From: an uncultured bacterium
GTDB lineage: Bacteria > Babelota > Babeliae > Babelales > Babelaceae
Assembly: GCA_963848965.1 (NCBI GenBank)
Contig: CAWKFG010000004.1
Location: 288,001 to 352,000 of the forward strand
Direction of reading: 5' to 3'
DNA: 64,000 nt
In this document: positions 11,546 through 63,416 of the stretch, piece by piece
Layout: each line of letters opens with the position of its first letter
Position numbering within the stretch: the first letter of the stretch is position 1
The notes under the pieces: model-generated
What the model was told of the DNA's origin: nothing
The model's input: the letters and a program-made list of their open reading frames with translations, nothing else
Databases searched by the model: none
Made by a program: the position numbers and the translations under genes

Positions 11546-12340
11546 ATGATACACAAAAAAAATATTTTTTTTCTTGTACTAAGTTTAGCAAACTGTATAA
11601 CTATGAGCGCACGACAAGAAGTTAAGAAAGCTTTTATTGTCTCAGGTCCTAAAAGCGGTACTCATCTTGCAGCAAAACTAGCAAAAAAACTTATGAAAGG
11701 CCGCTATAAAAATGCTACTAAATTTCATGATTTTAATATGAAAGAGATACAAAATTTATCTTCAAATACTATCTATCTAAGTCATGCTCCCTGCATTGCT
11801 AACTATACGGAATTTTTTGAAAGAGAACACATACGAGGCATTTTTATCTACAGAGATCCGCGAGATCAACTCATATCAAGTCGTCAATGGATCTACCAAC
11901 ATCCTGCTGTATGGCCAGAATTACAACATCTGCACCCTGATGACCTTCTTCTTACGCTCATCAATAACTATCCATGGGCTTACCCCTTTGGCACGAAAAG
12001 CATAAATAATACGTATCAATACTACTTATCTTGGCAAAAACATCCTTATGTGTATACAACAACGTTTGAACGGCTTGTAGGTCCTCAAGGAGGTGGTACA
12101 AGAGAAGAGCAACTTACAGAAATTTATAATATAGCAAAACATCTTAATAAAGATCTTTCGCAAGAGCAAGCAGAACAGTTAGCAAATCAGCTTTTTGGTG
12201 GGACTAATACTTTTAGAAATGGAAAAATAGGAGCATGGAAAAAAAAGAGCGGTTTTAAAGCAGTTCACAAAAGAGCCTTTAAAAAAGTAGCAGGAAAGCT
12301 TCTTATCAAACTAGGTTATGAAAAGGATCTTAATTGGTAA
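11546..12340 (+). CDS. PAPS-dependent sulfotransferase with signal peptide
   Basis: PKSGTHL (5'-PSB), YRDPRDQLIS (3'-PB), FRNGKIGAW; hydrophobic N-terminus. Confidence 0.85.
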   Translation: MIHKKNIFFLVLSLANCITMSARQEVKKAFIVSGPKSGTHLAAKLAKKLMKGRYKNATKFHDFNMKEIQNLSSNTIYLSHAPCIANYTEFFEREHIRGIFIYRDPRDQLISSRQWIYQHPAVWPELQHLHPDDLLLTLINNYPWAYPFGTKSINNTYQYYLSWQKHPYVYTTTFERLVGPQGGGTREEQLTEIYNIAKHLNKDLSQEQAEQLANQLFGGTNTFRNGKIGAWKKKSGFKAVHKRAFKKVAGKLLIKLGYEKDLNW

Positions 12341-46655: not shown

Positions 46656-47087
46656 CTAATCTTTTTTAGCTTTCTTATCTTTTTTGTACTCAATTGCAAG
46701 AAGCTTAGTCGCAATAGGAGAGCCACTTGGCGAATCTTCTGAACTTTCTTCTTCATCAGAAAATTCATACCTTACATTCTTTGATTTAGAATCTTTTTCT
46801 TGATCCTTTTTAACTGGCGCTGCCTGTTTCTGAGCAGTTGGTATTGGTTGTGAGGTAGATCCGGGACCCTTATAGGAAGCGGTAGGCATATCAGCTGCTT
46901 CATTTAATTCATTCCAAAACATACTCCATGCTTTGGCCCATGAAAAAGATGGGGCACGATTTTCAGAAGCTCTCATTGTAGCGACTTCACCTTGCACTCT
47001 TTGCATAGCCGCACAATTTTGACTTAATACAATGCTTACAACTAAGCAAATGAGAAAATGTAGAGAATAAGCGTTAATCTTTACCAT
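46656..47087 (-). CDS. Secreted low-complexity hypothetical protein (signal peptide then MQ)
   Basis: ...NCAA|MQR; acidic/Ser-rich patch FSDEEESSEDSP and a basic tail. Confidence 0.7.
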   Translation of the reverse strand: MVKINAYSLHFLICLVVSIVLSQNCAAMQRVQGEVATMRASENRAPSFSWAKAWSMFWNELNEAADMPTASYKGPGSTSQPIPTAQKQAAPVKKDQEKDSKSKNVRYEFSDEEESSEDSPSGSPIATKLLAIEYKKDKKAKKD

Positions 47088-47479
47088 GGCTTTACCTTCC
47101 CTTAATTTGGTAAACTTTGAACCATCCCTTAATTTTAAGGATAATCAAAAAATAATAAATTTACAAGTTTTAGCATAATTATTTTTCAAATATAAATTTA
47201 ATAAGCACATTGCTTACATAAAAAATGCAAAATATGCTCATTTGTGAAACCTGAGCTAGACTTATTTTTCAAGAAAAAGTAAGTATATAAAACCGTTTTT
47301 AAGTCTTTGTTAACATAAGCTTTTATATATCATATCCGCTTACAAATTTTCAACAAGATTTCTTACCTTATACATCCTAAGCATTAAAATTATTTACTTC
47401 AATCTTTTTTAGCTACTAAGAATAATACAATATATTAAAAATTGGAAAAGCAAATTTTTCTTGTTCAGCTTATATTGCC

Positions 47480-47805
47480 TTAATGATGTCGTAATACAAG
47501 ATCTCGAAAACCACATTATGATGAAAACCGTACAAATCATGAATGTGGAGCTAAAAAATATCATCAATACATAGCAAAACATATGCATCAGTTCAATTAT
47601 AAAGATGCAATTGATCAAGATCTCCTGATAGGCTCTGGCGAGGTAAAAAGTTCACATCGGACTATGATATAAAAGCGACTTAAATTACCTGAAGCTTGGT
47701 AGCTTGAAAAAAATACAGAGAATATGTTGGCTATACGCACAGCAAAAGCCAATAATAATGGGGAAAGTTATTGGTTAATTAACCAATACTTTTAATACAC
47801 TCCAC
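47480..47805 (+). pseudogene. Degraded transposase C-terminus, ISKra4-like
   Basis: QFNYKDAIDQDLLIGSGEVKSSHRTMI*KRLKLPEAW*...MLAIR...N..ESYW resembles the PIGSG.IES.HR...KRLK..GAWW motif; two stops and a probable frameshift. Confidence 0.7.
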
Positions 47806-47888
47806 TACAGTCTTTAGCTTGTCTTTTTTTCTTGTTTTGATAGCTTGGGTACAACAATTGTGTATAGTGTGAGCTCATGGGGTTGATG

Positions 47889-49889
47889 ATGGTATCAAAA
47901 AAAGTTTTTTTTATTTATGGCATAGGATTCTTCTTTTTAATGAATGCTATGGAGAAGGAAAAAGAAGATAATTCAAGTGGCAATGTTGGTGCTCCTCTGA
48001 TACAAAGCCTGCATAAAGTGGTTCAAGCTAATAATAATCTTACGGCTTTAATAAACGCAGCTAGGTATGGGCATAAAGAGCTCGTACAAGAGTTGTTAGA
48101 TAAAGGAGCTGTGCTTGATATGCAAGATGATTCCGGTAACACTGCTTTAATGAGTGCTTCATATAATGGTCATAAAGAAGTTGTCATCTTATTGGTAAGT
48201 AAAGGAGCAAATTTTACCATACAAAATAATAATGGCTATACGGCTTTAAGGCTTGCTGCTCAATATGGGCACAAAGAAGTTGCACAAGTGCTTTTAGAAA
48301 AAGGAGCTAGGGATCATGCTGCTTTAGCAGATGCTGAGAAAAATCACCATAAAGATGTGGTATCTCTCTTGTTTAAGTATGCGCAAGACAAAACGAACGA
48401 TAATGCTAAAAATGTTATCTCTTCTACTCAAGAAACAGAACAGGGTAAGCAGGCCTCTCCATCTTCTTTACGAGCTTCTTCTTTACCTATATCTCCTGTC
48501 GTAGAAAGCCCGAGCAATAAAGCGCAAGAAATCAGGATCACTGGCGAACTTCTTAATGTTGATGCTCAAGATAGCGACGGGCAAACGGCTTTGATAAAAG
48601 CTGCCAATCAAGGAGATAAAGAAGGTGTACAAGAACTTTTGAAAAAAAGAGCTAATGTTAGTATTGTAGATAAAAAAGGGGATACTGCGCTTATATGGGC
48701 TGTACGCTCAGGTAATAAGCAAATAGTAGAACTTTTGCTAAAAAATGATGCTGAAGTTAATACTAAAAATGTAAGCGGCTGGACAGCACTACATTATGCT
48801 GCTCAGAGTGGCAATAAAGAGCTGGCAGAGTTATTGATAAGTCACGAGACTGATATTAATGCTCAAGATATAATCCAACAGACAGCCTTGCATGTAGCTG
48901 CACATAACGGGCATAAAAAGCTTGTAGAGTTATTAATAGCTCAAGGAGCAAATCTTTATTGTACTTGTAAATATGTAAAAAATCCTACAAATACTGACAT
49001 TACTGTTTTGATGTGCGCTGCACTTGCAGGCCATAAAAATGTTGTAGAATTTTTATTACATGCAGGAGCTTCAATAAACTCTCAAAGTAGTTTGGGGTGG
49101 ACAGCCTTGACTGGAGCGGCATATTGGGGACATATCGAAGTGGTTGAACTGTTATTAAGTAAAGGTGCGGCTCTTCAATCAAAGATGAGCGTTACTGCTT
49201 TTATGCAAGCAGCGCGTATGGGCTATAAGAAAGTGATAGAACTTTTCTTACAAGCGGGAATTTCGGTAAATGTTCGAGATAATGAGGGGCGGACAGCTTT
49301 AATGAATGCTACTACTGGAGGACATAAGGAAGTAGTAGAAAGTTTACTAAAAGCAGGAGCTCAAATAGATATTCAAGATAATAAAAAATATACAGCTTTA
49401 ATGAGCGCAGTATCTAACGGTCACAAAGAAATAGTAAAAATTTTATTGCAAGCAGGAGCACAAATAAATGCTCGAGAGGAAAATGGGTGGACATCATTAA
49501 TAATGGCAGCTTCACCTGGTAACACTACAGTAAAATATCATAAAGAAATAGTAGAGCTTTTACTAGAGGCTGGAGCAGACATCAATGCTCAAAGTTTATA
49601 TGGTTCTACAGCGTTACTTATTGCTGTAGATAAAAAGAATAAAGACTTAGTAGAACTATTATTAAGGAAGGGAGCAAATCCTAATCTTGTGGAGAAGAAT
49701 TATCTAGAGACTCCTTTAACAAGAGCCGTATATAATAAGCATAAAGAAATAATCGAACTTTTGTTGAAAGCTGGAGCTGATGGTAATGCTCAAAATAAAG
49801 AAGGAAAAACAGCTTTGTCGAAAGCGACACAAGAGGAGCGTAAAGAGATAGTAGAATTGTTATTAAGCAAAGGTGCACAAATGCTATGA
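47889..49889 (+). CDS. Ankyrin-repeat protein with signal peptide then ME
   Basis: More than 15 G.TAL..AA..GH.E.V..LL..GA repeats; ...LMNA|MEKE. Confidence 0.95.
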   Translation: MVSKKVFFIYGIGFFFLMNAMEKEKEDNSSGNVGAPLIQSLHKVVQANNNLTALINAARYGHKELVQELLDKGAVLDMQDDSGNTALMSASYNGHKEVVILLVSKGANFTIQNNNGYTALRLAAQYGHKEVAQVLLEKGARDHAALADAEKNHHKDVVSLLFKYAQDKTNDNAKNVISSTQETEQGKQASPSSLRASSLPISPVVESPSNKAQEIRITGELLNVDAQDSDGQTALIKAANQGDKEGVQELLKKRANVSIVDKKGDTALIWAVRSGNKQIVELLLKNDAEVNTKNVSGWTALHYAAQSGNKELAELLISHETDINAQDIIQQTALHVAAHNGHKKLVELLIAQGANLYCTCKYVKNPTNTDITVLMCAALAGHKNVVEFLLHAGASINSQSSLGWTALTGAAYWGHIEVVELLLSKGAALQSKMSVTAFMQAARMGYKKVIELFLQAGISVNVRDNEGRTALMNATTGGHKEVVESLLKAGAQIDIQDNKKYTALMSAVSNGHKEIVKILLQAGAQINAREENGWTSLIMAASPGNTTVKYHKEIVELLLEAGADINAQSLYGSTALLIAVDKKNKDLVELLLRKGANPNLVEKNYLETPLTRAVYNKHKEIIELLLKAGADGNAQNKEGKTALSKATQEERKEIVELLLSKGAQML

Positions 49890-49939
49890 GCAAGGGATTT
49901 GCGCTATTAGAATCATTTAAGATAGCACTTCAAATATAG

Positions 49940-50716
49940 TTATCGACAAGAACTTTCTAGTGCAAGAACAATATCGTTATCCTTAACACGAATTTTTAAT
50001 GCAACGTCAGGAAAATATTCCAGCACATCTTGTATATGATACCTTCTGCTTTGAAGGACTGCATTTTCATTATCTTCACTAAGAAAGCGCTGATCATGTA
50101 TAACCATAGTATTAGAAGAATCAAAAGTAAGATTTAACTTTTTAAGGAAAGCTTCACGAACACATCGTTGCTTAGAGCTTAAAAGATAATTTTGAGGAGC
50201 TAAAAAATCAGGAATTAACCCGTCTATTTTTTTTAAGACTTCTGGATCACCATGTATATAACTTTCCATCCACTCTAAAGCTCCTGGGGTACCCCAATAA
50301 AAAGCAGCATAAAAGAGAAGTTTAAGCCATTCTGCACTAGAAGAGGAAAATATTTTTGAGTATTTTTTAACAAATTCTTGTAACACTAATCCATTAAATT
50401 GTGCATCCCTTAATAAGGGAGAAAAGGATCTATGCATGCTCATACATGCTTTTATACTATCCCACGCGTTAAAGAAATCTTGAACATTTTCAGTAAGATA
50501 CTGAGTATTCTTTATTACTGAGTAAAGAATACTCTTTTTAATGTCGGCTGGTAACTCGTTCAAAGAACCTGAAGACACTACGGTAGACTTGTAATTATCG
50601 ATAATTACCATGTTACCTAAACTTTTTGGAGACTCCATAGCATTAAGGACAGTACAGAACAAAAAGCTACTTATTTGTATTATTCTTATACTATACATTG
50701 CTTCCTTGTTTTTCAA
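49940..50716 (-). CDS. Secreted protein with F-box-like motif
   Basis: ...VLNA|MES; LNELPADIKKSIL; shares a domain with 50780 and 60888. Confidence 0.7.
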   Translation of the reverse strand: MKNKEAMYSIRIIQISSFLFCTVLNAMESPKSLGNMVIIDNYKSTVVSSGSLNELPADIKKSILYSVIKNTQYLTENVQDFFNAWDSIKACMSMHRSFSPLLRDAQFNGLVLQEFVKKYSKIFSSSSAEWLKLLFYAAFYWGTPGALEWMESYIHGDPEVLKKIDGLIPDFLAPQNYLLSSKQRCVREAFLKKLNLTFDSSNTMVIHDQRFLSEDNENAVLQSRRYHIQDVLEYFPDVALKIRVKDNDIVLALESSCR

Positions 50717-50779
50717 AGAATTTATTTACCCATATTTTAAAGTATACAAGGAAGCCGTATAAGCTGCAAGAACTCTTTA

Positions 50780-51673
50780 TCACATTTGGCCTGAAGGATA
50801 GTCTGTAATAACTTTTGTAACTCCTGGTCTGCCTACTATAGAAGGCTGCGTATAACCGGGACGCAATCTTATCCTTCCGCCACCAGGACCAAAGAAGTCT
50901 ACTTCTCGCCATTTGGTTAATTTGTCGATTTCTTCTTCTGAAAGTGTGTGTCTGCCACGGAACACTTTTATCTTTTCTTCAACAAGACCTTTAACTGTTT
51001 CTCCCTTTTTGTTTGTATATGCACCTACTAATCCAGGTTTATATTTTTCAGCTCCATTATATAATAAATAGAGTGCTAGATCAGGATTATCCTGTTTTAT
51101 AGCTACCATAAGAGGAGTATTACCCTCATCATCCTGAATATTAAGAGGGGCCCCGTTCTTTATTAAAAGAGGTATAAGAGTGCCATACGTATGTGATCCT
51201 GACCATGCAAGAATTGTAAAAAGAACTTCTTTATTCTTTGAAAGCTCTGGGTCAGATTCTAGCATATCTCTTAACCAATCAACCGCTCCCTTGGTGCCTA
51301 AAACAGTTGCCGCCTTAATTAATGACACTCTATCTATTGTAGAGAAAAACCGTCGTGCCAGCTCTTCAATCAAAGCTCTGTTTATAGATTCGTCGTTTAA
51401 GAAAGGTGCAAATACTTTGTTAAGAGACATAAAATTGCGTATATTCTGCGCTGCTTCTTGTATGTCTTTTCCTGATGTTAGAAATAAAAGAACCTCGCCC
51501 TTAAGCTCATCAGGTAAAGCCTCAAGAGGAGCTGGTAATGGCTGTCTATAGTGTTCTATAATTCTAAGCCAGTACGTCGGTGAAACTTTTATTTTTCCCA
51601 CTCCTTCTGGCCCTTCCATAGCACTTACACTACTTACAAGGCAGCATACAATTAGCCATAATTTACTATTCAT
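50780..51673 (-). CDS. Secreted F-box-like plus ankyrin protein
   Basis: ...SVSA|MEG; LEALPDELKGEVL; GNTPLMVAI ankyrin repeat. Confidence 0.8.
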   Translation of the reverse strand: MNSKLWLIVCCLVSSVSAMEGPEGVGKIKVSPTYWLRIIEHYRQPLPAPLEALPDELKGEVLLFLTSGKDIQEAAQNIRNFMSLNKVFAPFLNDESINRALIEELARRFFSTIDRVSLIKAATVLGTKGAVDWLRDMLESDPELSKNKEVLFTILAWSGSHTYGTLIPLLIKNGAPLNIQDDEGNTPLMVAIKQDNPDLALYLLYNGAEKYKPGLVGAYTNKKGETVKGLVEEKIKVFRGRHTLSEEEIDKLTKWREVDFFGPGGGRIRLRPGYTQPSIVGRPGVTKVITDYPSGQM

Positions 51674-51904
51674 AATAACGTCCTTTTTATTTTTATATTC
51701 TTTTGCATTAACTATATAGTATTTTATTCAATTTTGCAATAGAATACATAGCTCTCTGTACCAGCTACTTTTTACTTTTCAACATTTTAGCTTCCTTCTT
51801 TTGATAAAAGAAATGAGTTAAGAGACTTGCCAACAAAGAAACCGTTAGTATATAGTGAAATGAGACTAATACCAGATGGCATAGTTCTTATAAGGGGGAC
51901 AATT

Positions 51905-52264
51905 ATGAAATTGCATATATATATAGGTACTGGAGTTTTACTTTTTATGTATCCACTCTATGGCACATTACCAGAAAAACCAGTAGAAACACAAAAAGAC
52001 AAATCTCATCTTTTGCTTAAAGCGCTCTCAAATTACAAAGGCATTGCTACAGGATTAGTAGCACTTATCTCAGGCGTTTACGGCTTAGTACAGCTTAAAG
52101 ACGCTTATATCTTTTATAAAGATCCGGAATTACTTCCAGAAGAGCGAGGAAGCGTTGTATTTCATGCAGTTGGACCGGGAGTAGGAGCACTCTATATCGC
52201 CTATCATGCTACAAAAACCTTTAGGAAATCCTGGAAAGAATTTTTAGCAAAAAATGCAGCTTAA
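51905..52264 (+). CDS. Small exported membrane hypothetical protein
   Basis: Signal peptide MKLHIYIG...LYG and two TM segments; GGGGG RBS. Confidence 0.65.
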   Translation: MKLHIYIGTGVLLFMYPLYGTLPEKPVETQKDKSHLLLKALSNYKGIATGLVALISGVYGLVQLKDAYIFYKDPELLPEERGSVVFHAVGPGVGALYIAYHATKTFRKSWKEFLAKNAA

Positions 52265-52294
52265 TTTCAGAGTTTATATACACTGCAGACAACG

Positions 52295-53092
52295 CTATTT
52301 TTTTTGGCTTCTAGTGCCATACGTCCAATTAGATGGCTTATTTAATATCCTTCGAGCAAGTACAGGACTTGGTCTATTAAGAGAAAAAATTCCCCATACT
52401 GCCGCCATAAGGCCACCTTGTTGCGGTTGAGGAGGGTTTACTGCTGCTGGACTGGTTGTTTGCTCTTTACTTTGAGGAATAGAATTTGATGCAGGCGCTT
52501 GTTTGATTGGCCCTTGTTCTGCCTCATTATTTTGTTCACCGTTATTTACTCGAGGGGAAGCAACTGGTGATTGAGCCAATTTAATACGCTGCTTACAGAT
52601 AGAGCATGTAGGATGTTGAGGATTTGCAAGAATTTGGCGATTAGCACATATAGCACAGAAAAGATGGCCACAATTAAATTGTGTCATCTGCTCTTCAGAT
52701 CTAAAATCATCTTTACAAAGAGGACATTTTATCACTATCTCACTTCTACAGGTAGGACAGGTGCCTTTCTTTGCCTTCCACTCAAATATACACTTTACAC
52801 AGCAGTTATCATGCTTACATGCTAATTTAACATTACATGACATTTCACTATCACCAACTTTAACAGAATTTTCTTCATGACAAATAAGACAGTCAAAAAC
52901 TCCTAACCTTTTTGCCTCTTTACTATCTGCTTCAGGTCCTTTTAGCTTTTCTTCAAACGGATTCTGCAAAGGTAACTTTATACCTAAACGAACACCCTCT
53001 TTTACAAAATAAGGCTGTTCTTGTTGCATTGCAAAAACAGCCGATTGAATAAGCGAAAATATAAGAACTAAACGCACATAGCATAGGTTCAT
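52295..53092 (-). CDS. Secreted protein with two RING-HC-like zinc fingers
   Basis: CLIC...CKH..C..C...CPTC and CPLC...CGHLFCAIC...CSIC; ...AVFA|MQQ. Confidence 0.85.
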   Translation of the reverse strand: MNLCYVRLVLIFSLIQSAVFAMQQEQPYFVKEGVRLGIKLPLQNPFEEKLKGPEADSKEAKRLGVFDCLICHEENSVKVGDSEMSCNVKLACKHDNCCVKCIFEWKAKKGTCPTCRSEIVIKCPLCKDDFRSEEQMTQFNCGHLFCAICANRQILANPQHPTCSICKQRIKLAQSPVASPRVNNGEQNNEAEQGPIKQAPASNSIPQSKEQTTSPAAVNPPQPQQGGLMAAVWGIFSLNRPSPVLARRILNKPSNWTYGTRSQKK

Positions 53093-53270
53093 AGAAACCC
53101 CCTTAGCTTTGACTAAATATTATAACTCTCTATAATTAACAATACCATATTTTATCCCAATGTAAATCTTTAGCATATTCCACACTGAAATTGCTATCTT
53201 TATGAGAAGAAGATTCATCGTTCTGCTAGAAAGCGGACTATAAATCCTTTTACAAAGCATACGCATACAA

Positions 53271-53298
53271 AAAAGGTGCTGTATAATCAGCACCTTTT
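53271..53298 (-). terminator. Intrinsic terminator after mreB
   Basis: AAAAGGTGCTG-tataat-CAGCACCTTTT. Confidence 0.75.
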
Positions 53299-53299
53299 G

Positions 53300-54352
53300 T
53301 TATCTCATTAGCGTTTCTTTAAAGAAATCAAGCTCTTCAAGTACTTTACCTGCGCCATTTACTACGCAAAATAATGGATTATCTGCTATTCTTACAGGAA
53401 GCCCTGTTTCACGGGCAATTAATTTATCAAGTCCGCGAAGCATAGAGCCTCCACCCGCCATAGTAATACCTTTATCTACTAAATCAGATGAAAGTTCTGG
53501 AGGTGTATTTTCAAGAGCAACATGCACAACGTCAGTAATACTTGCAATAGTTTCTAAAAGAGCTTCATGAACCTCTCTATTGGTAAGCGTAATAGTCTTT
53601 GGTACTCCTGTCATAAGATCACGCCCTTTTACTTCAACAGTTTCAAGCTCGCCATCATCCATAACAGTACCTACTTCGATTTTAATCATCTCTGCAGTAC
53701 GCTCACCTATAAGCAAATTATACTTGCGCTTAACGTACTGTACAACTGCACGGTCCATCTCGTCACCGCCTACACGAACTGATCTACAGAAGACAACGTC
53801 TTTTAAGCTAATAACAGCAACCTCTGTAGTTCCACCACCAATATCGATGATCATACTTCCAGAAGGGTCATGTACTGGTAATCCTGAACCAATTGCTGCT
53901 GCCATAGGCTCCATAATAGTATATACTTCTCGTGCACCTGCTTGCTTTGCAGAATCTTCTACAGCACGTCGTTCTACTTGCGTAATACCAGAAGGAACTC
54001 CAATAATCATACGAGGACGTACGAGCGTTCGCCGATTATCGTGCACTTCACGAATGAAATAGCGTAACATACTTTCAGTAAGCTCAAAATTTGCAATTAC
54101 TCCATCGCGCATAGGTCTACAGGCTACAATGCTCTCTGGTGTTTTACCAAGCATCTCTTTAGCCCTTTTACCCGCTGCAAGCACATGATTAGTATGAGCC
54201 TTTACCGCCACTACCGATGGCTCATTTAATACAATACCCTTATGTGGTACATACACTACCGTATTTGCGGTCCCCAAATCGATAGCAAGATCATTTGAAA
54301 AAAAGCTAAAGAGCCGTTTAGCTGGTAAAAATTTAGAGAATCTACCCTTCAT
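53300..54352 (-). CDS. mreB: Rod shape-determining protein MreB
   Basis: Motifs AIDLGTANT, EPSVVA, DIGGGTTE, TPPEL..D. Confidence 0.97.
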   Translation of the reverse strand: MKGRFSKFLPAKRLFSFFSNDLAIDLGTANTVVYVPHKGIVLNEPSVVAVKAHTNHVLAAGKRAKEMLGKTPESIVACRPMRDGVIANFELTESMLRYFIREVHDNRRTLVRPRMIIGVPSGITQVERRAVEDSAKQAGAREVYTIMEPMAAAIGSGLPVHDPSGSMIIDIGGGTTEVAVISLKDVVFCRSVRVGGDEMDRAVVQYVKRKYNLLIGERTAEMIKIEVGTVMDDGELETVEVKGRDLMTGVPKTITLTNREVHEALLETIASITDVVHVALENTPPELSSDLVDKGITMAGGGSMLRGLDKLIARETGLPVRIADNPLFCVVNGAGKVLEELDFFKETLMR

Positions 54353-54371
54353 AATTTTTTTAAATACCTCC

Positions 54372-55613
54372 CTAGAAATTAAGTTCTACCATTAATGATA
54401 CACTATGCGTTTTCGCCGATCGTTTACTCACTTTCCAATCTACAGGAATATCCCAATAAGCAGAAATAATAGGTCGCCACCATGCCCACTCACAATTTTT
54501 ATTAAAGTCATAAAAAGCACCAACCGTTACATACTCACTACCCCATGAAGAGCGAGCCCGTACTGGTTCTAAGTTTACAGGAACCGCTTTATCACGCCGC
54601 ATATCAGATAAAGTATCTTTTAGGTGAGCAACCATAGTATACTGCACCTTAAGACCAAACCCTTCCCGCAGCCCTTCAAGAGAGATATAAGGATTAAATA
54701 CAAATGTCCAGCCTGGATCAACATGCAGAGGCCCAACCACCGCTCCATAACGCGTTGGTTCGCAATCGACTGGTATCCGTTGCGTTAACGTCTTTGACAA
54801 TCGCTTAATTGCTCGGAACTGAAATCCAACAACCCAATCCTCCTTCAATTCTATCTCATTTTCAAGACCAAGATAAACTCCCCAATGCTTATTACCGCCA
54901 AGAGAAATAGACGCTGGATTATTAATGTTTATATCATCGGCTGTAGGCGCTATAAAGCCAAGCTTTAATCCAGAGTCTATACGCTTTACTTTACAGATAT
55001 ATTCTGCAAAAAAGCCAAGCCTAAAATAAACATCAAGGTCACCAAACATTGTCTTTCTAAAAAGCGGAGGAGTTACTCCAAGCTCACGATCCATTCTTTC
55101 ACGTAATGTAAAGAGAGCCTGCCTGCTACCTGCTGCATTTGTAGCATTTGTTGCATCTAAGCAAAACTCTTGTGCTGAATTAACATGTGCAAAAAGAAAT
55201 GACATTCCTGAAGAAAAATAGAAGCCACTTGGATGGCACCATCCAGGTAACAGCTCTAAGTAAAATGCTATTCCTTCAGCATCAAGATGCCCTTCTCTAC
55301 GCCATGGAATACTTGTTAACGCACGTAATCGTGAAGGAAAAAGATTCGGATGCCCGGTGGCAACAAGCGCTCTGCCAATTTGTACCTGATCATAGGTACC
55401 ATCAATGTTCGGAAGACTTGTTTCATCAAAGTCACCATGTGCTCGCTCTGCACGCATGAAAAAAGGCTGCACCCTAAAATTCAGATACGCCTGCGGCCTA
55501 TGAGTAAATGGCTTAAAATAGAGAGGAAGAAATCCTCTACTAGCGTCAAATGTCATACTATAAAGAGAAGAATTACCTGTGAGTAAAAGTAAAAAATACC
55601 AACGCTTTATCAT
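54372..55613 (-). CDS. Putative outer-membrane beta-barrel protein
   Basis: Signal peptide, amphipathic strands, C-terminal VSLMVELNF ending in Phe. Confidence 0.55.
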   Translation of the reverse strand: MIKRWYFLLLLTGNSSLYSMTFDASRGFLPLYFKPFTHRPQAYLNFRVQPFFMRAERAHGDFDETSLPNIDGTYDQVQIGRALVATGHPNLFPSRLRALTSIPWRREGHLDAEGIAFYLELLPGWCHPSGFYFSSGMSFLFAHVNSAQEFCLDATNATNAAGSRQALFTLRERMDRELGVTPPLFRKTMFGDLDVYFRLGFFAEYICKVKRIDSGLKLGFIAPTADDININNPASISLGGNKHWGVYLGLENEIELKEDWVVGFQFRAIKRLSKTLTQRIPVDCEPTRYGAVVGPLHVDPGWTFVFNPYISLEGLREGFGLKVQYTMVAHLKDTLSDMRRDKAVPVNLEPVRARSSWGSEYVTVGAFYDFNKNCEWAWWRPIISAYWDIPVDWKVSKRSAKTHSVSLMVELNF

Positions 55614-55630
55614 TGTAGTCCCTGGTTATC

Positions 55631-55725
55631 TGGTGGAGAGAGAGGGATTCGAACCCCCGATCCCGGGTTTAAACCGGAATAACCGCTTTCGAGGCGGCCG
55701 CTTTCGTCCACTCAGCCATCTCTCC
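55631..55725 (-). tRNA. tRNA-Ser(CGA)
   Basis: GGAGAGATGGCTGAGTGG...GCCGC-CT-CGA-AA-GCGGT, long variable arm, GGTTCGAATCC, encoded CCA. Confidence 0.95.
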
Positions 55726-55973
55726 TTGCACATTTTATCTGTTTCACGGTTGAGCTTTAAGTAGTTGACGAACCGTCACCCTTACTACAAGGATAAATGA
55801 TCTGGTATTTTTGAAAAGCTTTTTTGATCTTTCTTATAACAGAAATGTCGATATACTCTTATTATGCAACAAAAATTAAAAACAGGTTAATATTATTAAG
55901 AAATAAGCAATAAATTACCTAAAGTAAACATTTGCTTGAAAAAATTATATATGCTCATGCACAAGCTTTTATA

Positions 55974-57296
55974 CTATTTTTGAGCATTATTTGCCTCCTT
56001 TAAACGTTTGCATTTTTCTTTATGCCGAGGCCAATCTTTTACTTGGCATTCTCGAGAACAGTACATCACTGTTCTGCAGTCTCCACACTTTTTATGGTTC
56101 CCTGGTTTATCACATCCACTACATCCAGCAGAAATAAAATGCATATTCATAGCCTGGTTTGTATTAAGATTATTATAAAAAATATCTTTTATAGGCATTA
56201 TGTCTTCATGCTTGCCTTGAGCATGTGCTCGTTCTACTTCTCCGCATGCCTTCATAATCTCCATCGTTTTATCAACACTTGTAAGGTCATATTCTTCATA
56301 AGTTCTATCGGGCAGAATTTGATAACCAACAAGATTTTCTACACAAGCTTCGGTACTTCCTGACACAATAGCCTTACGAGCTAAAGCTGCAATATATGGT
56401 ACAACTGAGTGATCTATATTATATAAATCTTCTGTTCGAACAAATATAAATGGCTTTTGATTAAGAAGAGTACCATCTAAGTACCCAAGTTTAACTAAAT
56501 AGCATGCTGCTATATGAGCTATACCATGATCTTGAGTACCTTCGCAAATAAGACGATGAACTGTCGCTAGTAAATACTTTGAAAAAAGACCTTTAATTTC
56601 TCTGCAGATCTCACTATACTCAAGATGCAATGCCGTCAGCATATGTGCTTTAAGTTCAGGATGCTCTTTACAAGTATTACAATACTCATCCACACTAGAA
56701 TATATACGTACTTCGATAGAAAATCCTACATCTTGTTCAACAAGCTTGATCCATTTCATAAATTGGCAGAATAGCTTATGCAAAAAGTGACTTCCTTGAG
56801 GATTAGTTATGTACTCGTGATACTCTTTATCAATTAAATTTATCTTAAGCGTGAAGTGCTTTTTATATTTTTTGAGCGCGTAAGCAATTCTACTTACCAT
56901 TACTAATTCAGAATAGAGTCTACTGGTATTAAGGCTTGTATAAACAATAGTATCATTACCTTTAAAAAAAGAAGAACCATTGCCAGCAACAAGCTGTTCA
57001 AAAGATGACCTAATCCATGGAAAAAGCTTTCTATTCATAGGGCACTTTTCACTTGCACATTCTCTTATTGAAAAAAGAGGAGAAGAACTACTATGTATAC
57101 TCTCATATGCACGTATAATATCTTGTCTCTCATTAGATCTAATAAGCTTCTTAACAGTTCTATAAAAATCAGAAGTTATTTCTGGTACTTTTGAAAACTG
57201 AATCACTTTCTCTGTTATATACTCTGAAAGAAAGAATCCTCCACAGAGAGAAAATGAAAAGAATGATGAAAGTAAAAAGAGAAAACGAATAAACAT
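55974..57296 (-). CDS. Secreted protein with C-terminal MYND zinc finger
   Basis: CSGC....CGDC..VMYCSRECQVKDWPRHKEKC; signal peptide. Confidence 0.85.
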   Translation of the reverse strand: MFIRFLFLLSSFFSFSLCGGFFLSEYITEKVIQFSKVPEITSDFYRTVKKLIRSNERQDIIRAYESIHSSSSPLFSIRECASEKCPMNRKLFPWIRSSFEQLVAGNGSSFFKGNDTIVYTSLNTSRLYSELVMVSRIAYALKKYKKHFTLKINLIDKEYHEYITNPQGSHFLHKLFCQFMKWIKLVEQDVGFSIEVRIYSSVDEYCNTCKEHPELKAHMLTALHLEYSEICREIKGLFSKYLLATVHRLICEGTQDHGIAHIAACYLVKLGYLDGTLLNQKPFIFVRTEDLYNIDHSVVPYIAALARKAIVSGSTEACVENLVGYQILPDRTYEEYDLTSVDKTMEIMKACGEVERAHAQGKHEDIMPIKDIFYNNLNTNQAMNMHFISAGCSGCDKPGNHKKCGDCRTVMYCSRECQVKDWPRHKEKCKRLKEANNAQK

Positions 57297-57394
57297 AGAA
57301 CTCCTAACACACAAACATAAAATTTATTACTATTATAAAGACCAAGTTAGCACTAATTACCAATTTTTGCAAATATGCGGGCTCATAGAACCAC

Positions 57395-58030
57395 TTATAC
57401 AACCAACTTTGAAAGTAGTATGATCATGCCTTGTACTGCATGAAAGAATGTTCTTTGAACAGCTGGAATACTAAAAATAACAACGACAATAAGAAGAGTA
57501 AATGGTTGGAGTTTATAATATGTTTCCTTCCACTCTTGAGGTAACAGCGCTTGAATAACGTGGCTTCCGTCAAGCGGAGGAATCGGCAAGATATTAAACA
57601 TTCCTAATATAACGTTAATCATCAGAAACTCTCTTAAAAAAAAGAGAATGCCCTCACGCGGATAGTAGAGTGTAAAATATTTAAAAGCATAAAGTGAAAC
57701 TACCGCAAGAAAAAAGTTAGAAAGCGGTCCTGCAAATCCAACGAGTACTGAATAGAAACCAGGATACTTAAAGTTTTTAGGATTTATAGGCACTGGCTTT
57801 GCCCAGCCAACACGAATTAAAAGAATCAGCAAAAATCCTAAAGGATCTATATGCTTAATCGGATTAAGCGTTAAACGTCCGGCACGCTTTGCAGTATCGT
57901 CACCTAACATATAGGCTACTACTGCATGCATACATTCATGAAACGTAACTGCAAGCAAAAATGCTACGATAGTGCTTAGAAATACAAAAACTTGTAGAGC
58001 CATAGCTTTTCTCAAAGTAACAATTCTCAT
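57395..58030 (-). CDS. Site-2 protease family (M50)
   Basis: Motifs FHECMH, GD.TA...GRLTLNP, AGP.SN, FNILPIPPLDG. Confidence 0.92.
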   Translation of the reverse strand: MRIVTLRKAMALQVFVFLSTIVAFLLAVTFHECMHAVVAYMLGDDTAKRAGRLTLNPIKHIDPLGFLLILLIRVGWAKPVPINPKNFKYPGFYSVLVGFAGPLSNFFLAVVSLYAFKYFTLYYPREGILFFLREFLMINVILGMFNILPIPPLDGSHVIQALLPQEWKETYYKLQPFTLLIVVVIFSIPAVQRTFFHAVQGMIILLSKLVV

Positions 58031-58237
58031 TTTTCCTTACATTATTCTACCATGTAAGCATAGAGGTATACAACAAAAGCACTTTTAATTGCACAGTCAT
58101 TACCATGAGTTATTCACACAGAAAGGTAGTGTTTATAAAATAATTTTTTTGTTTATACTTAATGTAAATATCTTCAGTTTTGAAAGTACCTCTTAACGTA
58201 AAAGATCTTTGAGGTACAATGCACCATAAGGAGCCGT

Positions 58238-59656
58238 ATGGCGTCTGTAAATCTTCAAGCCATTGTTTTAGCTGCAGGTAAATCAACACGATTCAATACA
58301 AGTAAGACAAAACTCAGCTTTATGCTCTGCGGACAAGAGATGGTTTTGTATCCGCTTAAACTTCTCCTTCATCTTAATATAAGGCCACATCTTGTCTTGG
58401 GTTATCAAAAAGAGTATCTTTTGTCACTTTTGGACGAACACTCTCTGAATCTCACTTTTACTGAACAGCAAGAACAGAAAGGAACTGGTCATGCATTGTT
58501 ATGTACGCAAGAGCAATGGAGTGCAGATCATATCCTTGTCATGAATGGCGATATGCCGCTCCTTTCAGAGGGAGTTATTCAGTCTCTTATTGATCGTCAT
58601 AGAGAAAAAGATGCTACTATTTCGTTAGTTATAGCACATAATAGTGATCCTTCAGTAACAGGATATGGGCGCATTGTAAAGCAGCATGGACGTATCTCTA
58701 TTGTAGAAGCACGAGATTTTACAGGAGATACTACTGTTGATTGCTGTCTTAATGCAGGAATTTATATATTTAAACGATCATTTCTAGAAAAAACTTTGCC
58801 AAAGCTTCAGCATAACAGCACTAATGGTGAACTTTATATTACTGACCTTATAAAGATGGCAAGTGAAACAGATGAGCCCCTTGAGCTTGTATCAGCTCCT
58901 TTTGATTCTATACGAGGAGTAAACACATTGCAAGATCTTTGGATCGCTGAACAAATTAAGCGTGCTGATATTATTAAATTTTGGATGGCACAAGGAGTTC
59001 GTTTTACTGCACCTCAAACAACACACATTGACTATGGAGTAATTTTAGAGCCTGATACCACCATCAATACTGGTGTTCAATTGCGAGGTACTACCTCTGT
59101 TGGGCGTAACTGCTTTATTGATGCTTTCTCTGTTATTACCAACACACAATTACATGACAACGTTACCGTACACCCCCATTCTGTCATAAGTGATTCAGAG
59201 ATTCACAGAGATACACAAGTAGGACCGTTTGCTCATATTCATCATAAAAGTACTCTACAGGACAAGAGCATTATTGGCAACTTTGTAGAAGTCACCAGAA
59301 GCTCAATAGGCACCCAAAGTAAAGCAAAACATCTTGCTTACATTGGAGACGCTTTTATAGGCTCTCGAGTAAATGTAGGTGCAGGAGCTGTTGTGTGCAA
59401 TTATAATGGAGTAAGCAAACATCCTACCATTATAGAAGATGGTGCTGATATAGGAAGCAATAGCTCTCTTATTGCTCCTCTTACTGTTGGAAAAGAAAGT
59501 TTTATTGGCGCAGGCTCTGTTATTACAAAAAATGTACCTTCTCACGCCCTTACGCTGTCTCGGTCCGAACAGATTATTAAAGAGCAGTATGCACCAAAGC
59601 TTAAGGAAAAGTATAAAAAAGCAACTATTAAGCAGAGTGAGCAAGAAAACGCATGA
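58238..59656 (+). CDS. glmU: Bifunctional UDP-GlcNAc pyrophosphorylase / glucosamine-1-phosphate acetyltransferase
   Basis: Motifs LAAGKSTR, GTGHA, GYGRI, ELYITD, GNFVE, HLAYIGDA, NYNG and hexapeptide repeats. Confidence 0.95.
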   Translation: MASVNLQAIVLAAGKSTRFNTSKTKLSFMLCGQEMVLYPLKLLLHLNIRPHLVLGYQKEYLLSLLDEHSLNLTFTEQQEQKGTGHALLCTQEQWSADHILVMNGDMPLLSEGVIQSLIDRHREKDATISLVIAHNSDPSVTGYGRIVKQHGRISIVEARDFTGDTTVDCCLNAGIYIFKRSFLEKTLPKLQHNSTNGELYITDLIKMASETDEPLELVSAPFDSIRGVNTLQDLWIAEQIKRADIIKFWMAQGVRFTAPQTTHIDYGVILEPDTTINTGVQLRGTTSVGRNCFIDAFSVITNTQLHDNVTVHPHSVISDSEIHRDTQVGPFAHIHHKSTLQDKSIIGNFVEVTRSSIGTQSKAKHLAYIGDAFIGSRVNVGAGAVVCNYNGVSKHPTIIEDGADIGSNSSLIAPLTVGKESFIGAGSVITKNVPSHALTLSRSEQIIKEQYAPKLKEKYKKATIKQSEQENA

Positions 59657-60891
59657 TACGTTTTATTCATACAGCAGATATACACTTTGGTATGGAAAAT
59701 TATGGCAGAATAGACCCAAAATCTGGCATTCATTCGCGCCTTCTTGACTACGAAAAGGTACTTAACTTTTGCATAGATTATGCTATAGACCAGAATGTCG
59801 ATTGCTTTCTCTTTTCAGGAGATGCTTACAAAACGGCACATCCGACACCAACTCATCAGCGCCTCTTTTTACAGTGCCTTTTACGGCTTTATAAAGCAGG
59901 TATTCCTATTGTAATGGTAGTAGGTAACCACGACAATCCATTGAGTTTTGGCAAAGCTCATGCTCTTGAGGTTTTTGGGCAATTACCAGTAGATGGTTTT
60001 CATGTTATTTCTAAACCTTCAATATTACAGCTTAAAACAAAGAGCGGACTTCTACAAATTGTAGGTATTTCATGGCCTACCCGAAATACAGTATCTCTGA
60101 GTAATGCACATCTATCTACCTCTGCAACCGAAATTACGCAGTATATTAGTACAGGGGTAAGCAAAATTATAGAAGAGCTTGCACTGCAACTTGATCCAGA
60201 ATTACCTGCAGTACTTATGGGTCACCTTACTGTAAGTACAGGAATGTTTTCAGGCTCTGAAAAACGTGCTATTTATGGCACTGATCCTATTTTTCTACCT
60301 TCTCAACTTGCAATACCTCCCTTTGATTATGTAGCGTTAGGCCATCTGCATAGATTCCAAGATCTTAACGAGCGTGGTCATCCACCACTTGTCTACTCAG
60401 GCTCTTTAGAGCGTATTGACTTTGGAGAGCGCAAAGAAGAAAAAGGATTCTGTCTAGTAACGCTTGAAAATAAATATGAAACAACCTATGAGTTTATTAA
60501 AACCCCCACAAGACCGTTTATTCAAATAGAAGTGCGGTTATTTGACGACATTCTAAGTCAAACTGATCAGATCATCAATGAGATCACGCGTTATCCTATA
60601 GAAAACGCTGTTGTTAAGATTATCTATCATTTACCGCCAGGCAAAAAAGATCGTGTAGATCTTTCAGCACTACAAAAGGCTTGTGCAAGTGCCTGGTATA
60701 TAGCAGGTATTATACCATTACGTATGCCTGAAGCACGAGAACGCAGAGCTACACTTAAAGTAGACATGGATCTTTCACAGCTGCTTACTACCTACTTTGA
60801 TATGAAGCCTGAGTATAAGCTCATGAAAAAGACCCTCATAGATAAAGCTCTGCTTATTCAAGGAGAGCTTTTTGAAAAAGAGCATAATTAA
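59653..60891 (+). CDS. sbcD: Exonuclease SbcD (Mre11-like)
   Basis: Motifs HTADIHFG, GD, GNHD, YVALGHLH, YSGS. Confidence 0.9.
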   Translation: MIRFIHTADIHFGMENYGRIDPKSGIHSRLLDYEKVLNFCIDYAIDQNVDCFLFSGDAYKTAHPTPTHQRLFLQCLLRLYKAGIPIVMVVGNHDNPLSFGKAHALEVFGQLPVDGFHVISKPSILQLKTKSGLLQIVGISWPTRNTVSLSNAHLSTSATEITQYISTGVSKIIEELALQLDPELPAVLMGHLTVSTGMFSGSEKRAIYGTDPIFLPSQLAIPPFDYVALGHLHRFQDLNERGHPPLVYSGSLERIDFGERKEEKGFCLVTLENKYETTYEFIKTPTRPFIQIEVRLFDDILSQTDQIINEITRYPIENAVVKIIYHLPPGKKDRVDLSALQKACASAWYIAGIIPLRMPEARERRATLKVDMDLSQLLTTYFDMKPEYKLMKKTLIDKALLIQGELFEKEHN

Positions 60892-61862
60892 TGTACTACT
60901 ACACGAAAGAGAGCAATAATTTCAGCAAATATTTGTGCTCTTTTGGTCCATTCCTGAGCATCTGCTAGCTTATTTTCTTGGCAATATTTTTGAGCTTCTC
61001 GAGTAGTATATGCATACGAACGTTGAGCTTGTTGTAGAGCTGAAATTTGTCCTATTTTTACTATTAAAGGGTTTGCTCCAAATGCCAACAGAAGCTTGAT
61101 CGTTTCAAGGTGTTCAGGCCTAATAAACCAATTTTGTGCTATAACATAAAGCGCCGTGTCCCCTGTACCATTTAAAGCGTTAGGATTAGCTCCATGCTCA
61201 AGCAATAATTTAGTCATTTCTACACGTCCATAACTAGCAGCCCACGTTAAAGGTAAATAAGCAAAAGGTTGCTCCTTTGGGTCAGGAAAAACATGCATAT
61301 CTGCTCCATTGGCAAGACAGAGCTTTACCAGATCTATGTTTCCTAAATATGCCGCAATTCCTAAAAGATCATCACCCTTTTTAGTTTTAATACGTACAAG
61401 CTCTCTTATAAGCGCAGGTCTTTGAGCTAAGTCTTGAGCTATTTCATTAATAGCTGGCCATTGTTTAAGATAGTTGATAACATTCAATGCTCCTAAAGTT
61501 CCTATAGTATGTGCCATATCCTCTGTATCACTATCAAAGCGACGGGCCAAAGCATTTATCAAGGATGCATTAAGCACAAGCTTATCAGAAATCAAACCAG
61601 TAGTTATAGTATCATCATGCGCCTGTATATAAGCTTTAATGGTATCTATAACGGAACTTTTTTCATCCTTTGTAAGTCCAGCCCATCGCAATAGCGGTGT
61701 CAAAGAAGAACCTGTATGTTTTTGCTGCGCCAGCAAGAGAGCCACCTCTTGTTTAAGCTCAAAAGGTAAGATATGCAGAAAATTAGCCTCAGACTTTTCG
61801 CTCATAGCTATTACTGATAGAGGTATAAACAAAAGGGTTAGAAGAAGGCACACGAATCTCAT
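60888..61862 (-). CDS. Secreted F-box-like plus ankyrin protein
   Basis: ...SVIA|MSE; LHILPFELKQEV; three ankyrin repeats. Confidence 0.8.
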   Translation of the reverse strand: MRFVCLLLTLLFIPLSVIAMSEKSEANFLHILPFELKQEVALLLAQQKHTGSSLTPLLRWAGLTKDEKSSVIDTIKAYIQAHDDTITTGLISDKLVLNASLINALARRFDSDTEDMAHTIGTLGALNVINYLKQWPAINEIAQDLAQRPALIRELVRIKTKKGDDLLGIAAYLGNIDLVKLCLANGADMHVFPDPKEQPFAYLPLTWAASYGRVEMTKLLLEHGANPNALNGTGDTALYVIAQNWFIRPEHLETIKLLLAFGANPLIVKIGQISALQQAQRSYAYTTREAQKYCQENKLADAQEWTKRAQIFAEIIALFRVVVH

Positions 61863-62030
61863 TGTTATTCACACTTTCTTATAAGATTTGCTAGATTATA
61901 TGGCTACTATTATATCAAATTGAAATTTAAAATCAACTGTGACAATGTATAAAACATTGACTAAATAAGCATAAGCACATAGAATAAGAATAAGTTAACA
62001 ACGAAACAATTCTATTTACTATTTTCAACT

Positions 62031-63416
62031 ATGATGAAAAAATTTATACTCTTTGCTTTTACCCTCTCTTGTTCCTTTCTCTTTGCTATGTCACAAGAAC
62101 TACCAACTGTTCGCTCTATTCCTCGTTTAGACATGCTTGCAGCATATTACTTTGCAGATAAAATTAATGAACAATGTCTTACCTCCAATAAAACTTCATT
62201 AGAAGAAAAGATAAAAGATATCACTAACACCTTTCTAAATTCCCTTATTTTACCTCTTGCATGTATTAATCTTATTAAGCATGCCTTTTGTGCAAAATAT
62301 GGTGGTGGTGAAAAAGTACGCGCTTGCCATCTTGTAAGGGGTCACACAGGAGTCATAACTCATGTAGCAACTTCGCAAGATCTCATTGCTTCAGCAGCAA
62401 AACCACGTCAAAATATACTTTCTTGGAATCTTGATAACTCAATCCGTATATGGAATAGCGCAGGTACCTATTTACGTACTCTACAAGGACCTCAAGGAGG
62501 TACACTATCTCTTGCCTTCCTTGCCAATGGCAATCTTATTGCAGGCGGAATACGCGTTCTCCTGAATCGAGAAGAATTTAATAGATTTACTTCTATGCAA
62601 GAGAACGAACGAGCAAAAAACTATCCTTCTTTACTGCTGTTTGATGGTACTACAGGACAACTTTTAAAATCATGTGCAACTGAAAACCCTATTTACTCTT
62701 TAGCAGTACTTGAAAATGGTATTATTGCTGCTGGAAGTGTAGGAGGGCCACTCTATCTTTTTGATAGTACACTCAAACACATAAAGACTCTTAACGCCCA
62801 TCGAGACACAGTATTCAATCTAGCTACCTTGCCGCATAATCACCTTGCTTCTGCATCAGATGATGCTACAATACGCATTTGGAATATGAATAACGAGAAA
62901 GAATCATTGGTAAAAGAGATCAGAACAGATGGAGTAATCATGGGGCTTGATGCTTTGCCAAATGGGCATCTTGTAATACTATCACAATGGTTATCAGTTG
63001 AAATATGGGACTGGCAAAAGCCTTCAGATCACTGTATAGCAACTTTTGGTGTCACCGATATACCACGTACAACTTATTGGCCATTTGCAAGTAAAGTTTT
63101 CTTTCCAAACTGTGTGCGCGTGCTGCCAAATAGCTCTATAGCTCTTGGGTCAAAAAATACTTCCTTGTGTATACTAAGGTTTGATCAAACTAAAAATAGC
63201 ATCGAGTTTCTTCATAAGTATGAAGGACAAGGAGCACAGACAACAACTATTGCAGGACTTAGCAACGGCTTTATTGTCACCGGTTCTGAAGACAGCATAG
63301 TACGTATCTGGCGTCCAAAAACTTTCGAAGAAGAACTCTATACTTTTCTTATTAAACTGCAAGCACAAAAAGAACCTAGACTTACCAAATGCCTACGCCT
63401 TTTCAAGCTTGTATAA
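62031..63416 (+). CDS. Secreted WD40-repeat protein with BC-box-like N-terminal motif
   Basis: ...FLFA|MSQ; GH...IRIWN, AH...LASASDDATIRIWN, VTGSEDSIVRIW. Confidence 0.88.
   Translation: MMKKFILFAFTLSCSFLFAMSQELPTVRSIPRLDMLAAYYFADKINEQCLTSNKTSLEEKIKDITNTFLNSLILPLACINLIKHAFCAKYGGGEKVRACHLVRGHTGVITHVATSQDLIASAAKPRQNILSWNLDNSIRIWNSAGTYLRTLQGPQGGTLSLAFLANGNLIAGGIRVLLNREEFNRFTSMQENERAKNYPSLLLFDGTTGQLLKSCATENPIYSLAVLENGIIAAGSVGGPLYLFDSTLKHIKTLNAHRDTVFNLATLPHNHLASASDDATIRIWNMNNEKESLVKEIRTDGVIMGLDALPNGHLVILSQWLSVEIWDWQKPSDHCIATFGVTDIPRTTYWPFASKVFFPNCVRVLPNSSIALGSKNTSLCILRFDQTKNSIEFLHKYEGQGAQTTTIAGLSNGFIVTGSEDSIVRIWRPKTFEEELYTFLIKLQAQKEPRLTKCLRLFKLV

Follow-up and report, generated by a model that had tools for sequence, protein, structure and literature searches.

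The window analysed here (64,000 nucleotides, i.e., positions 288001-352000 of contig C4) comes from the genome of an uncultured member of the Dependentiae, and it contains a series of genes for predicted exported proteins in which the signal peptide ends immediately before a methionine. Such a residue, found at position +1 with respect to the predicted cut and referred to below as the junction Met, follows a real, class-specific and lineage-restricted rule (the Met-first rule), and the signal peptides that precede it have the anatomy of classical Sec/signal peptidase I signal peptides. Its scope was under-estimated in the initial annotation, which listed eight open reading frames (ORFs): roughly 240-330 proteins of the source genome show the pattern, which extends to some, though not all, other families of Dependentiae.

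All eight ORFs are present and read as had been described. In each of them, a short basic n-region and a hydrophobic core lead up to a small -1 residue, right after which comes the Met; together, they represent at least five unrelated families. The first is a 550-amino-acid (aa) ORF without a Pfam domain on the forward strand (1288..2940), in which the signal peptide (1288-1362) is followed by the Met codon at 1363-1365 (FMLG↓MEKE, where the arrow marks the predicted cut). Next comes a 143-aa ORF on the reverse strand, also without a Pfam domain (46656..47087; signal peptide 47007-47087, Met codon 47004-47006, NCAA↓MQRV), followed by a 670-aa ankyrin-repeat protein on the forward strand (47877..49889; signal peptide 47877-47948, Met codon 47949-47951, LMNA↓MEKE). 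Two reverse-strand neighbours have an N-terminal domain in common (BLASTP E = 9e-13): a 258-aa ORF with no Pfam hit (49940..50716; signal peptide 50639-50716, Met codon 50636-50638, VLNA↓MESP) and a 297-aa protein with C-terminal ankyrin repeats (50780..51673; signal peptide 51620-51673, Met codon 51617-51619, SVSA↓MEGP), for which a protein homologue search returned the protein itself alone and none outside the source genome. A 265-aa RING-finger protein (52295..53092; signal peptide 53030-53092, Met codon 53027-53029, AVFA↓MQQE) and a 324-aa ankyrin-repeat protein (60888..61862; signal peptide 61806-61862, Met codon 61803-61805, SVIA↓MSEK) are encoded on the same strand, and a 461-aa WD40 protein on the forward strand completes the set (62031..63416; signal peptide 62031-62087, Met codon 62088-62090, FLFA↓MSQE). 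The statement that most of these proteins carry eukaryote-like domains stands for five of the eight according to Pfam (Ank at 47877, 50780 and 60888, RING at 52295, WD40 at 62031), whereas the ORFs at 1288, 46656 and 49940 gave no Pfam hit.

A residue-agnostic finder added two ORFs, one of 264 aa on the forward strand (11546..12340; signal peptide 11546-11602, Met codon 11603-11605, NCIT↓MSAR) and one of 413 aa on the reverse strand with the C-terminus ...VELNF (54372..55613; signal peptide 55557-55613, Met codon 55554-55556, SLYS↓MTFD); in the latter, the junction Met is possibly a chance case. In all eight listed ORFs, as had been predicted, and in these two, the sole cut site that conforms to the (-3,-1) rule falls right before the Met. 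Interleaved with the Met-first genes are three small ORFs of 130-145 aa (46242-46634 and 51827-52264 on the forward strand, 63445-63855 on the reverse strand). All three have either a leader or one to two hydrophobic segments, and the first two, which were scanned, gave no Pfam hit. In addition, a MYND zinc finger is found at the C-terminus of a 446-aa protein encoded on the reverse strand at 55974-57314, which has a hydrophobic leader without a junction Met (…SFSLCGGFFLS-EYITEK).

Frequency and sequence context of the junction methionine

The source genome (1.73 Mb, 37% GC, five contigs) was represented by 1579 ORF-based genes, obtained by taking the longest ORF per gene and resolving overlaps greedily, which together cover 88% of the genome. 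Approximately half of all ORFs have N-terminal hydrophobic leaders, and 164 ankyrin-repeat proteins were flagged genome-wide by a hidden Markov model (HMM) made from the genome's own repeats; this gene content agrees with the assignment to Dependentiae. Two detectors were applied to the exported proteins. The first requires a signal peptide-like (SP-like) N-terminus with [AGSCT]-Met within the cleavage zone, and the second is blind to the identity of +1; it asks for a small -1 residue, a run of 13 uncharged residues that contains a hydrophobic core ahead of the site, and a downstream part that begins polar. Both miss real cases (e.g., signal peptides with Lys close to the site) and let in some membrane proteins, and owing to these limits strict counts and loose counts (either detector) are both given below.

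Along the proteins, the frequency of Met reaches its maximum at residue indices 18-21 (4.3-5.5%), compared with a background of 1.7% past residue 80. The dipeptide [AGSCT]-Met occurs in the cleavage zone of 287 of the 738 SP-like proteins, vs. approx. 45 expected from dipeptide frequency, an excess much too large for chance, and Met occupies +1 in 226 of 1512 sites conforming to the -3/-1 rule, i.e., 9.7-fold over the same rule on mature regions. Detector 2 found a candidate site in 601 proteins, 236 of which (approx. 39%) have Met at +1; counted by position, Met was present at 240 of 1163 candidate +1 positions, a 12.3-fold excess over the mature-region frequency. With the same detector, the highest enrichments after Met were those of Cys (2.0-fold) and Tyr (1.9-fold), and Gln reached 0.7-fold.

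The sequence context is summarised by the consensus L(-3)-[Y/F](-2)-[A/S/G](-1)↓M-[E/Q/K]-[K/R]-E, with signal peptides mostly 18-22 residues long. In the logo of the 287 sequences, L was counted 104 times at -3, Y/F 116 times at -2, A/S/G 249 times at -1 and E/Q/K 188 times after the Met; one of the six residues L, I, S, T, V and A occupies -3 in 249 of 287. Positions -6 to -4 are rich in S/T and are preceded by an uncharged hydrophobic core, according to the logo and the hydropathy filters. Were the cut one or two residues later, Glu or Lys would occupy -1, against the rule; thus, the bond before Met is the only conforming site. One LepB (signal peptidase I) is encoded, recognised by a single PF10502 match (E = 6.7e-36), together with one LspA (signal peptidase II), and ordinary Cys lipoboxes occur in 42 other proteins of the whole genome.

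It had also been suggested that the junction ATG might serve as an internal start, i.e., as a second start codon giving a cytoplasmic isoform without the signal peptide. The ATG is indeed in frame and its product would equal the mature protein, a database homologue (P0124) has been annotated as starting with this residue, and 37% of ordinary genes lack a recognisable Shine-Dalgarno motif, so such starts exist. However, a Shine-Dalgarno-like motif of at least 4 nucleotides (nt) precedes 3% of junction ATGs; the proportion is 64% for the starts annotated in these genes and 14% when other internal ATGs are taken. The mRNA is not relaxed at this point either: in 63-nt windows, the predicted folding energy averages -9.9 kcal/mol for junction ATGs, vs. 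-5.4 for annotated starts and -8.8 for other internal ATGs. Moreover, there is no reason why an internal start should fall exactly on a -3/-1 cleavage site. On the Shine-Dalgarno and mRNA-folding evidence, this idea was rejected, and it is regarded as very improbable. The same data bear on the possibility of a gene-calling artefact, in which the junction Met would be the true start and the upstream hydrophobic stretch would remain untranslated. Longest-ORF gene calling can over-extend N-termini, but basic n-regions and hydrophobic cores are found in the upstream extensions, the upstream starts carry Shine-Dalgarno motifs at the frequency given above and lie in relaxed mRNA structure, and the leaders are included in independent public gene calls (P0001, P0002); an artefact is almost certainly not the explanation. 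It should be noted that gene finders may themselves start at the junction ATG and thereby lose the signal peptide, which is a warning for annotation.

Protein classes and conservation

The domain content of exported proteins was assessed on contig C4, where 169 of 363 SP-like proteins, all of at least 293 aa, were scanned with Pfam; the rest consist of 153 shorter non-ankyrin proteins and 41 ankyrin-HMM positives. Among 30 proteins with eukaryote-like interaction domains (21 Ank, 5 WD40, 2 MYND, 1 LRR and 1 UCH), the junction Met was found in 27 by either detector and in 17 by strict counting. The corresponding numbers for 22 envelope housekeeping proteins (3 secretins, 2 Omp85, TamB, 3 periplasmic binding proteins, 2 PBPs, a TolC-like protein, M23, NamZ, SBP, MreC, 2 S49, BamD, PPIase, MlaD and GspC) are one and zero. 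The difference, which the initial annotation had anticipated, is highly significant with both the loose (Fisher p = 2e-10) and the strict counts (p = 9e-6), and the sole housekeeping positive is an Omp85 in which hydrophobic residues follow the Met. The observation that secreted GT4 paralogs lack the pattern also holds, with no junction Met in any of seven GT1/GT4 glycosyltransferases. A further glycosyltransferase, of the DXD type, lies in the glycosyltransferase-rich island of the window (28743-29723, = L019:8067-9044); it has a leader without a junction Met and a weak match to the catalytic glycosyltransferase domain of TcdA/TcdB (E = 7e-9).

Genome-wide, 130 of the 164 ankyrin proteins have a junction Met, and several further ones, missed by the filters, were spotted by eye. 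The reach of the pattern goes beyond ankyrin proteins, as it is present in 129 of 436 sequence families plus 98 singletons, including AAA, MutS III/V-like, metallophosphatase, ADP-ribosylglycohydrolase, FGase and DUF6829 proteins. Two proteins of contig C4 (L008:41-3619 and L007:9849-13352; approx. 1,170-1,190 aa) combine MutS domains III and V with signal peptides ending in ...P↓MEK and would thus be DNA-repair-type ATPases that are apparently exported. Junction-Met proteins belong to the accessory secretome: of 583 protein pairs conserved between the source genome and its sampled relatives, no more than 11 include one. With so few orthologues, several of them membrane-protein false positives, an orthologue test of Met conservation is uninformative.

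Paralogs were compared as well. In pairs whose N-termini are 30-50% identical (n=184), Met is retained in 74%, vs. 24-46% at the ten positions on each side, and at 50-70% identity (n=48) the values are 85% vs. 31-73% at neighbouring positions; these figures are indicative only, as the pairs are non-independent and BLAST rewards Met-Met matches. The commonest replacement is Ile, one base apart. In unrelated pairs of junction-Met proteins, the flanking positions show random identity. A shared mobile 5' DNA cassette encoding the signal peptide was considered and rejected: blastn similarity was detected in just 57 of 41,041 pairs of 5' regions, 40 of the 57 within one protein family.

The conservation data are also relevant to the idea that the junction Met is a fossil start codon, i.e., that a signal peptide was added by 5' extension upstream of the old ATG of a once-cytoplasmic or newborn gene, leaving a Met with little or no function. 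Junction-Met proteins are young or accessory, as judged from the conserved pairs, ancient envelope proteins lack the Met, and domains of cytoplasmic type (AAA, MutS III/V, ankyrin) lie behind these signal peptides. A family that favours this idea is DUF6829, in which seven of nine signal peptide-bearing homologues from other genomes have a junction Met at approx. 50% identity and with unrelated signal peptide sequences; here, the Met adjoins the conserved domain and coincides, in the alignment, with the first residue of P0124, a database protein without a signal peptide. In the DUF6829 protein of the source genome (L025:16195-17613), a second segment (...GLAIS-M) behind the SP↓MEKTADQ junction is aligned with the signal peptide junctions of the homologues, and the protein looks as if a new leader had been placed upstream of an older junction. 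Nonetheless, a mere leftover would not be expected to be the best-conserved N-terminal position among paralogs with diverged flanks, and the random identity of flanks in unrelated pairs argues in the same direction. Glu follows the Met in 50 of 128 non-ankyrin families (one member each), six times its frequency as the second residue of cytoplasmic proteins (31 of 478 non-exported proteins), and the -3/-1 pattern is tuned to exactly the bond before Met. For ADP-ribosylglycohydrolase, homologues without a signal peptide start at another place (among the best 120 of 876 homologues), and the Met (...FIQA↓M) is a point change from the Ile of a 76%-identical relative with the same signal peptide ending (...FIQA↓I). 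The fossil start codon is therefore unlikely as an explanation; a start-codon origin is plausible in some families, and the retention of the Met, as far as the alignments can tell, appears to be selected.

Distribution across Dependentiae

The same pipeline was applied to samples of 38-200 kb from 16 other genomes, all belonging to one order of the phylum; as the samples are small and the genomes related, the resulting distribution is a sketch rather than a test. The highest enrichments of Met at candidate +1 positions were found in G005 (family f3; 8.7-fold, mostly Met-Asp), G018 (f3; 6.4-fold), G001 (f2; 6.3-fold, mostly Met-Glu) and G048 (f1; 5.1-fold, with Met-Val and Met-Gln). Intermediate values were obtained for G007 (f4; 4.4-fold, from just two proteins with Met), G040 (f6; 4.2-fold), G003 (f2; 3.6-fold) and two small genomes of f1, G050 (2.6-fold) and G059 (2.4-fold). 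Low values characterise G019 (f8; 2.0-fold), G041 (f10; 1.7-fold), G024 (f1, again a small genome; 1.6-fold), G047 (f5; 1.6-fold) and G043 (f11; 1.4-fold), and no Met at all was seen at candidate +1 positions in G010 (f7) and G045 (f12). The value for G040 is spurious, because its ankyrin paralogs (loci L079-L088) have a stereotyped signal peptide ending in S-[M/V]-Y-A↓A-Q-E, with Met or Val at -3; Met at -3 is not a +1 Met, and the Met-first rule does not apply in this genome. Thus, the rule is lineage-restricted and patchy, i.e., strong in the f1-f3 samples and absent in f5, f7 and f10, and it is strongest in lineages with a large accessory secretome.

Signal peptidase I genes also vary in number among these bacteria. 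A tandem pair is present in G048, G038, G023, G007, G043, G039 and G041, and a single gene was seen in the source genome, the assembly of which is 88.7% complete.

Possible roles and relation to known systems

The sequence data suggest that the bond before Met is cut and that the Met is under selection, as a feature of one class of proteins, the fast-evolving host-directed secretome (ankyrin, WD40, LRR, RING and MYND proteins, together with many orphans). That signal peptidase I exposes a selected Met, whatever its use, is considered probable. According to the explanation favoured here, an ordinary Sec-type signal peptide would most likely be cut by the single LepB between the small residue and Met, and the mature exported protein would then start with Met-Glu, Met-Gln or Met-Lys. 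After Sec export, the Met would be read in the periplasm as a fate tag that separates cargo due to leave the cell from proteins that stay. Such a tag explains the split between one of 22 envelope proteins and 27 of 30 eukaryote-like proteins most directly. Taken as a whole, this explanation, i.e., a Sec signal peptide cut before a selected Met that has a class-specific role as a fate tag, is the one towards which we lean, with some reserve; the recurrence of the Met behind unrelated signal peptides in the DUF6829 homologues of other genomes also speaks for it. The fate-tag function considered alone is its weakest step and can be put forward only tentatively. A still more specific version, in which Met-Glu/Gln/Lys would be a linear N-terminal sorting tag that hands periplasmic proteins to a type II secretion system or another outer-membrane exit leading to the protist host, seems unlikely.

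Type II secretion is of interest in this context, as no other outer-membrane secretion system has been reported for the phylum; parts of the Babela genome paper describe it as the only secretion system found in Babela, where most ankyrin proteins have signal peptides (PMC4378268). In the source genome, secretin loci are located on contig C4 (L042:10257-15963 and L043:41-4909), and the largest secretin, of 1142 aa, adjoins a GspC-like gene, a MoxR-type AAA gene and an Ank+MYND gene.

Several points weigh against the favoured explanation. The cut sites are predictions by the -3/-1 rule, made with our own scripts and not with SignalP. One UCH (L016:3050-4360), one MYND and one WD40 protein are exceptions without a junction Met. 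Among the best 120 of 876 ADP-ribosylglycohydrolase homologues, most close ones have a signal peptide, and the Met is found only in the copy of the source genome and is thus not conserved at the level of the family; the Ile-bearing relative with the same signal peptide ending was described above. The exported ankyrin proteins of G040 and G041, the latter with ordinary A↓A junctions, have no +1 Met, and Met is therefore unnecessary for ankyrin export in general. The number of secretins showed no correlation with the rule in five relatives: two each were found in the rule-bearing G001 and G005 and in the rule-lacking G047, three in G048 and also in the source genome (G000), and two plus a partial match with a stop in the rule-lacking G041. 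No lineage-specific receptor or enzyme for the tag turned up, in an analysis that included no search aimed at exported enzymes acting on Met. Finally, we know of no linear N-terminal signal for type II secretion.

A different role for the same selected Met might be played in the host. Bacterial export would then not read the Met, which would instead give the protein, once in the protist cytosol, an N-terminus that looks native, with a non-hydrophobic residue coming after Met, avoiding a host N-degron or allowing host N-terminal modification. The initial annotation had noted in this respect that ME and MQ termini are substrates of NatB and that MS termini become substrates of NatA, which is textbook knowledge. 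The class specificity suits eukaryotic domains of cytosolic type, and E, Q, D and N predominate after the Met in the different lineages (E/Q in the source genome, E/Q/N in G001, D/Q in G005). The Met is missing from hydrolases that probably act outside the cell or in the periplasm (GH18, esterase, NamZ, M23), in keeping with such a role. In the classical N-end rule, Ala and Ser at +1 count as stabilising too, so the need for Met is not obvious. An effect of the N-terminal residue on the half-life of bacterial proteins in the host cytosol is known, as described in part of an earlier report (PMC2518864), and it speaks for the host-side role. However, the exported ankyrin proteins of G040 and G041 begin with Ala or Gln, despite broadly conserved eukaryotic N-degron rules, and the arrival of junction-Met proteins in the host cytosol is presumed. 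A host-side role therefore appears rather unlikely on present evidence, and within the selected-Met reading a periplasmic fate tag is placed slightly above it.

A class-specific junction residue offers a handle, one that can be mutated, on the way in which Dependentiae bring their hundreds of Sec-exported proteins, with ankyrin and further eukaryote-like domains, to their hosts. In practical terms, the junction Met is a cheap sequence marker of the host-directed secretome in metagenome bins. If the sorting tag were real, two-step effector export would have its first simple sequence signal, and the effector repertoire of uncultured parasites would become readable from sequence alone.

The closest organisms for comparison are Babela massiliensis and Chromulinavorax destructans, which have the phylum, the protein classes and Sec-dependent export in common with the source genome, as far as described in parts of their genome papers (PMC4378268, PMC6561590); signal peptides are given there for 79 of 126 ankyrin proteins and for 44% of coding sequences. 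The word "methionine" has no occurrence in the main texts, i.e., with supplements outside the scope, of the Dependentiae genome papers PMC4378268, PMC6561590 and PMC4776705. Similarly, no description of a Met rule was found in the titles and abstract openings of the literature on Dependentiae signal peptides or in a broader term search, and the Met-first rule appears to be unpublished. In their n-, h- and c-regions, small residues at -3/-1 and length of 18-22 residues, and with LepB present in the genome, the signal peptides described here are those of the classical Sec/signal peptidase I pathway, from which this genome differs by having Met at +1 in approx. 39% of candidates. In model bacteria, Met is rare at +1; the scan performed here covered Dependentiae genomes alone.

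Some likeness to the lipobox (L-[A/S]-[G/A]↓C) is also apparent, given that both have Leu at -3, a small -1 residue and an invariant residue at +1, and that in the lipobox this last residue decides the later fate of the protein. The likeness is formal only: the +1 residue is Met and not Cys, -2 is aromatic, true lipoboxes (42 candidates) and LspA coexist with the Met rule in the same genome, and Met cannot be diacylglycerol-modified at a thiol.

The closest analogue is the Q-rule of Bacteroidetes, likewise a lineage-specific strong preference for one +1 residue of signal peptidase I substrates that was found by genome-wide statistics. There, as outlined in parts of two reports, the residue is Gln, which is cyclised to pyroglutamate (PMC5837995; PMC10653852). 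The Q-rule has a known partner enzyme, glutaminyl cyclase, whereas the residue in Dependentiae is Met, which is not known to have a modifying enzyme here, and Gln reaches 0.7-fold. The two rules also differ in scope. According to the account in part of PMC5837995, the Q-rule is compartment-independent and holds in >99% of Bacteroidetes species, i.e., it is nearly universal, whereas the Met rule is class-specific, as seen from the contrast between envelope and eukaryote-like proteins, and patchy among Dependentiae. Dependentiae would be the second lineage, after Bacteroidetes, to have rewritten the +1 position of signal peptidase I substrates, in this case limited to one class of cargo.

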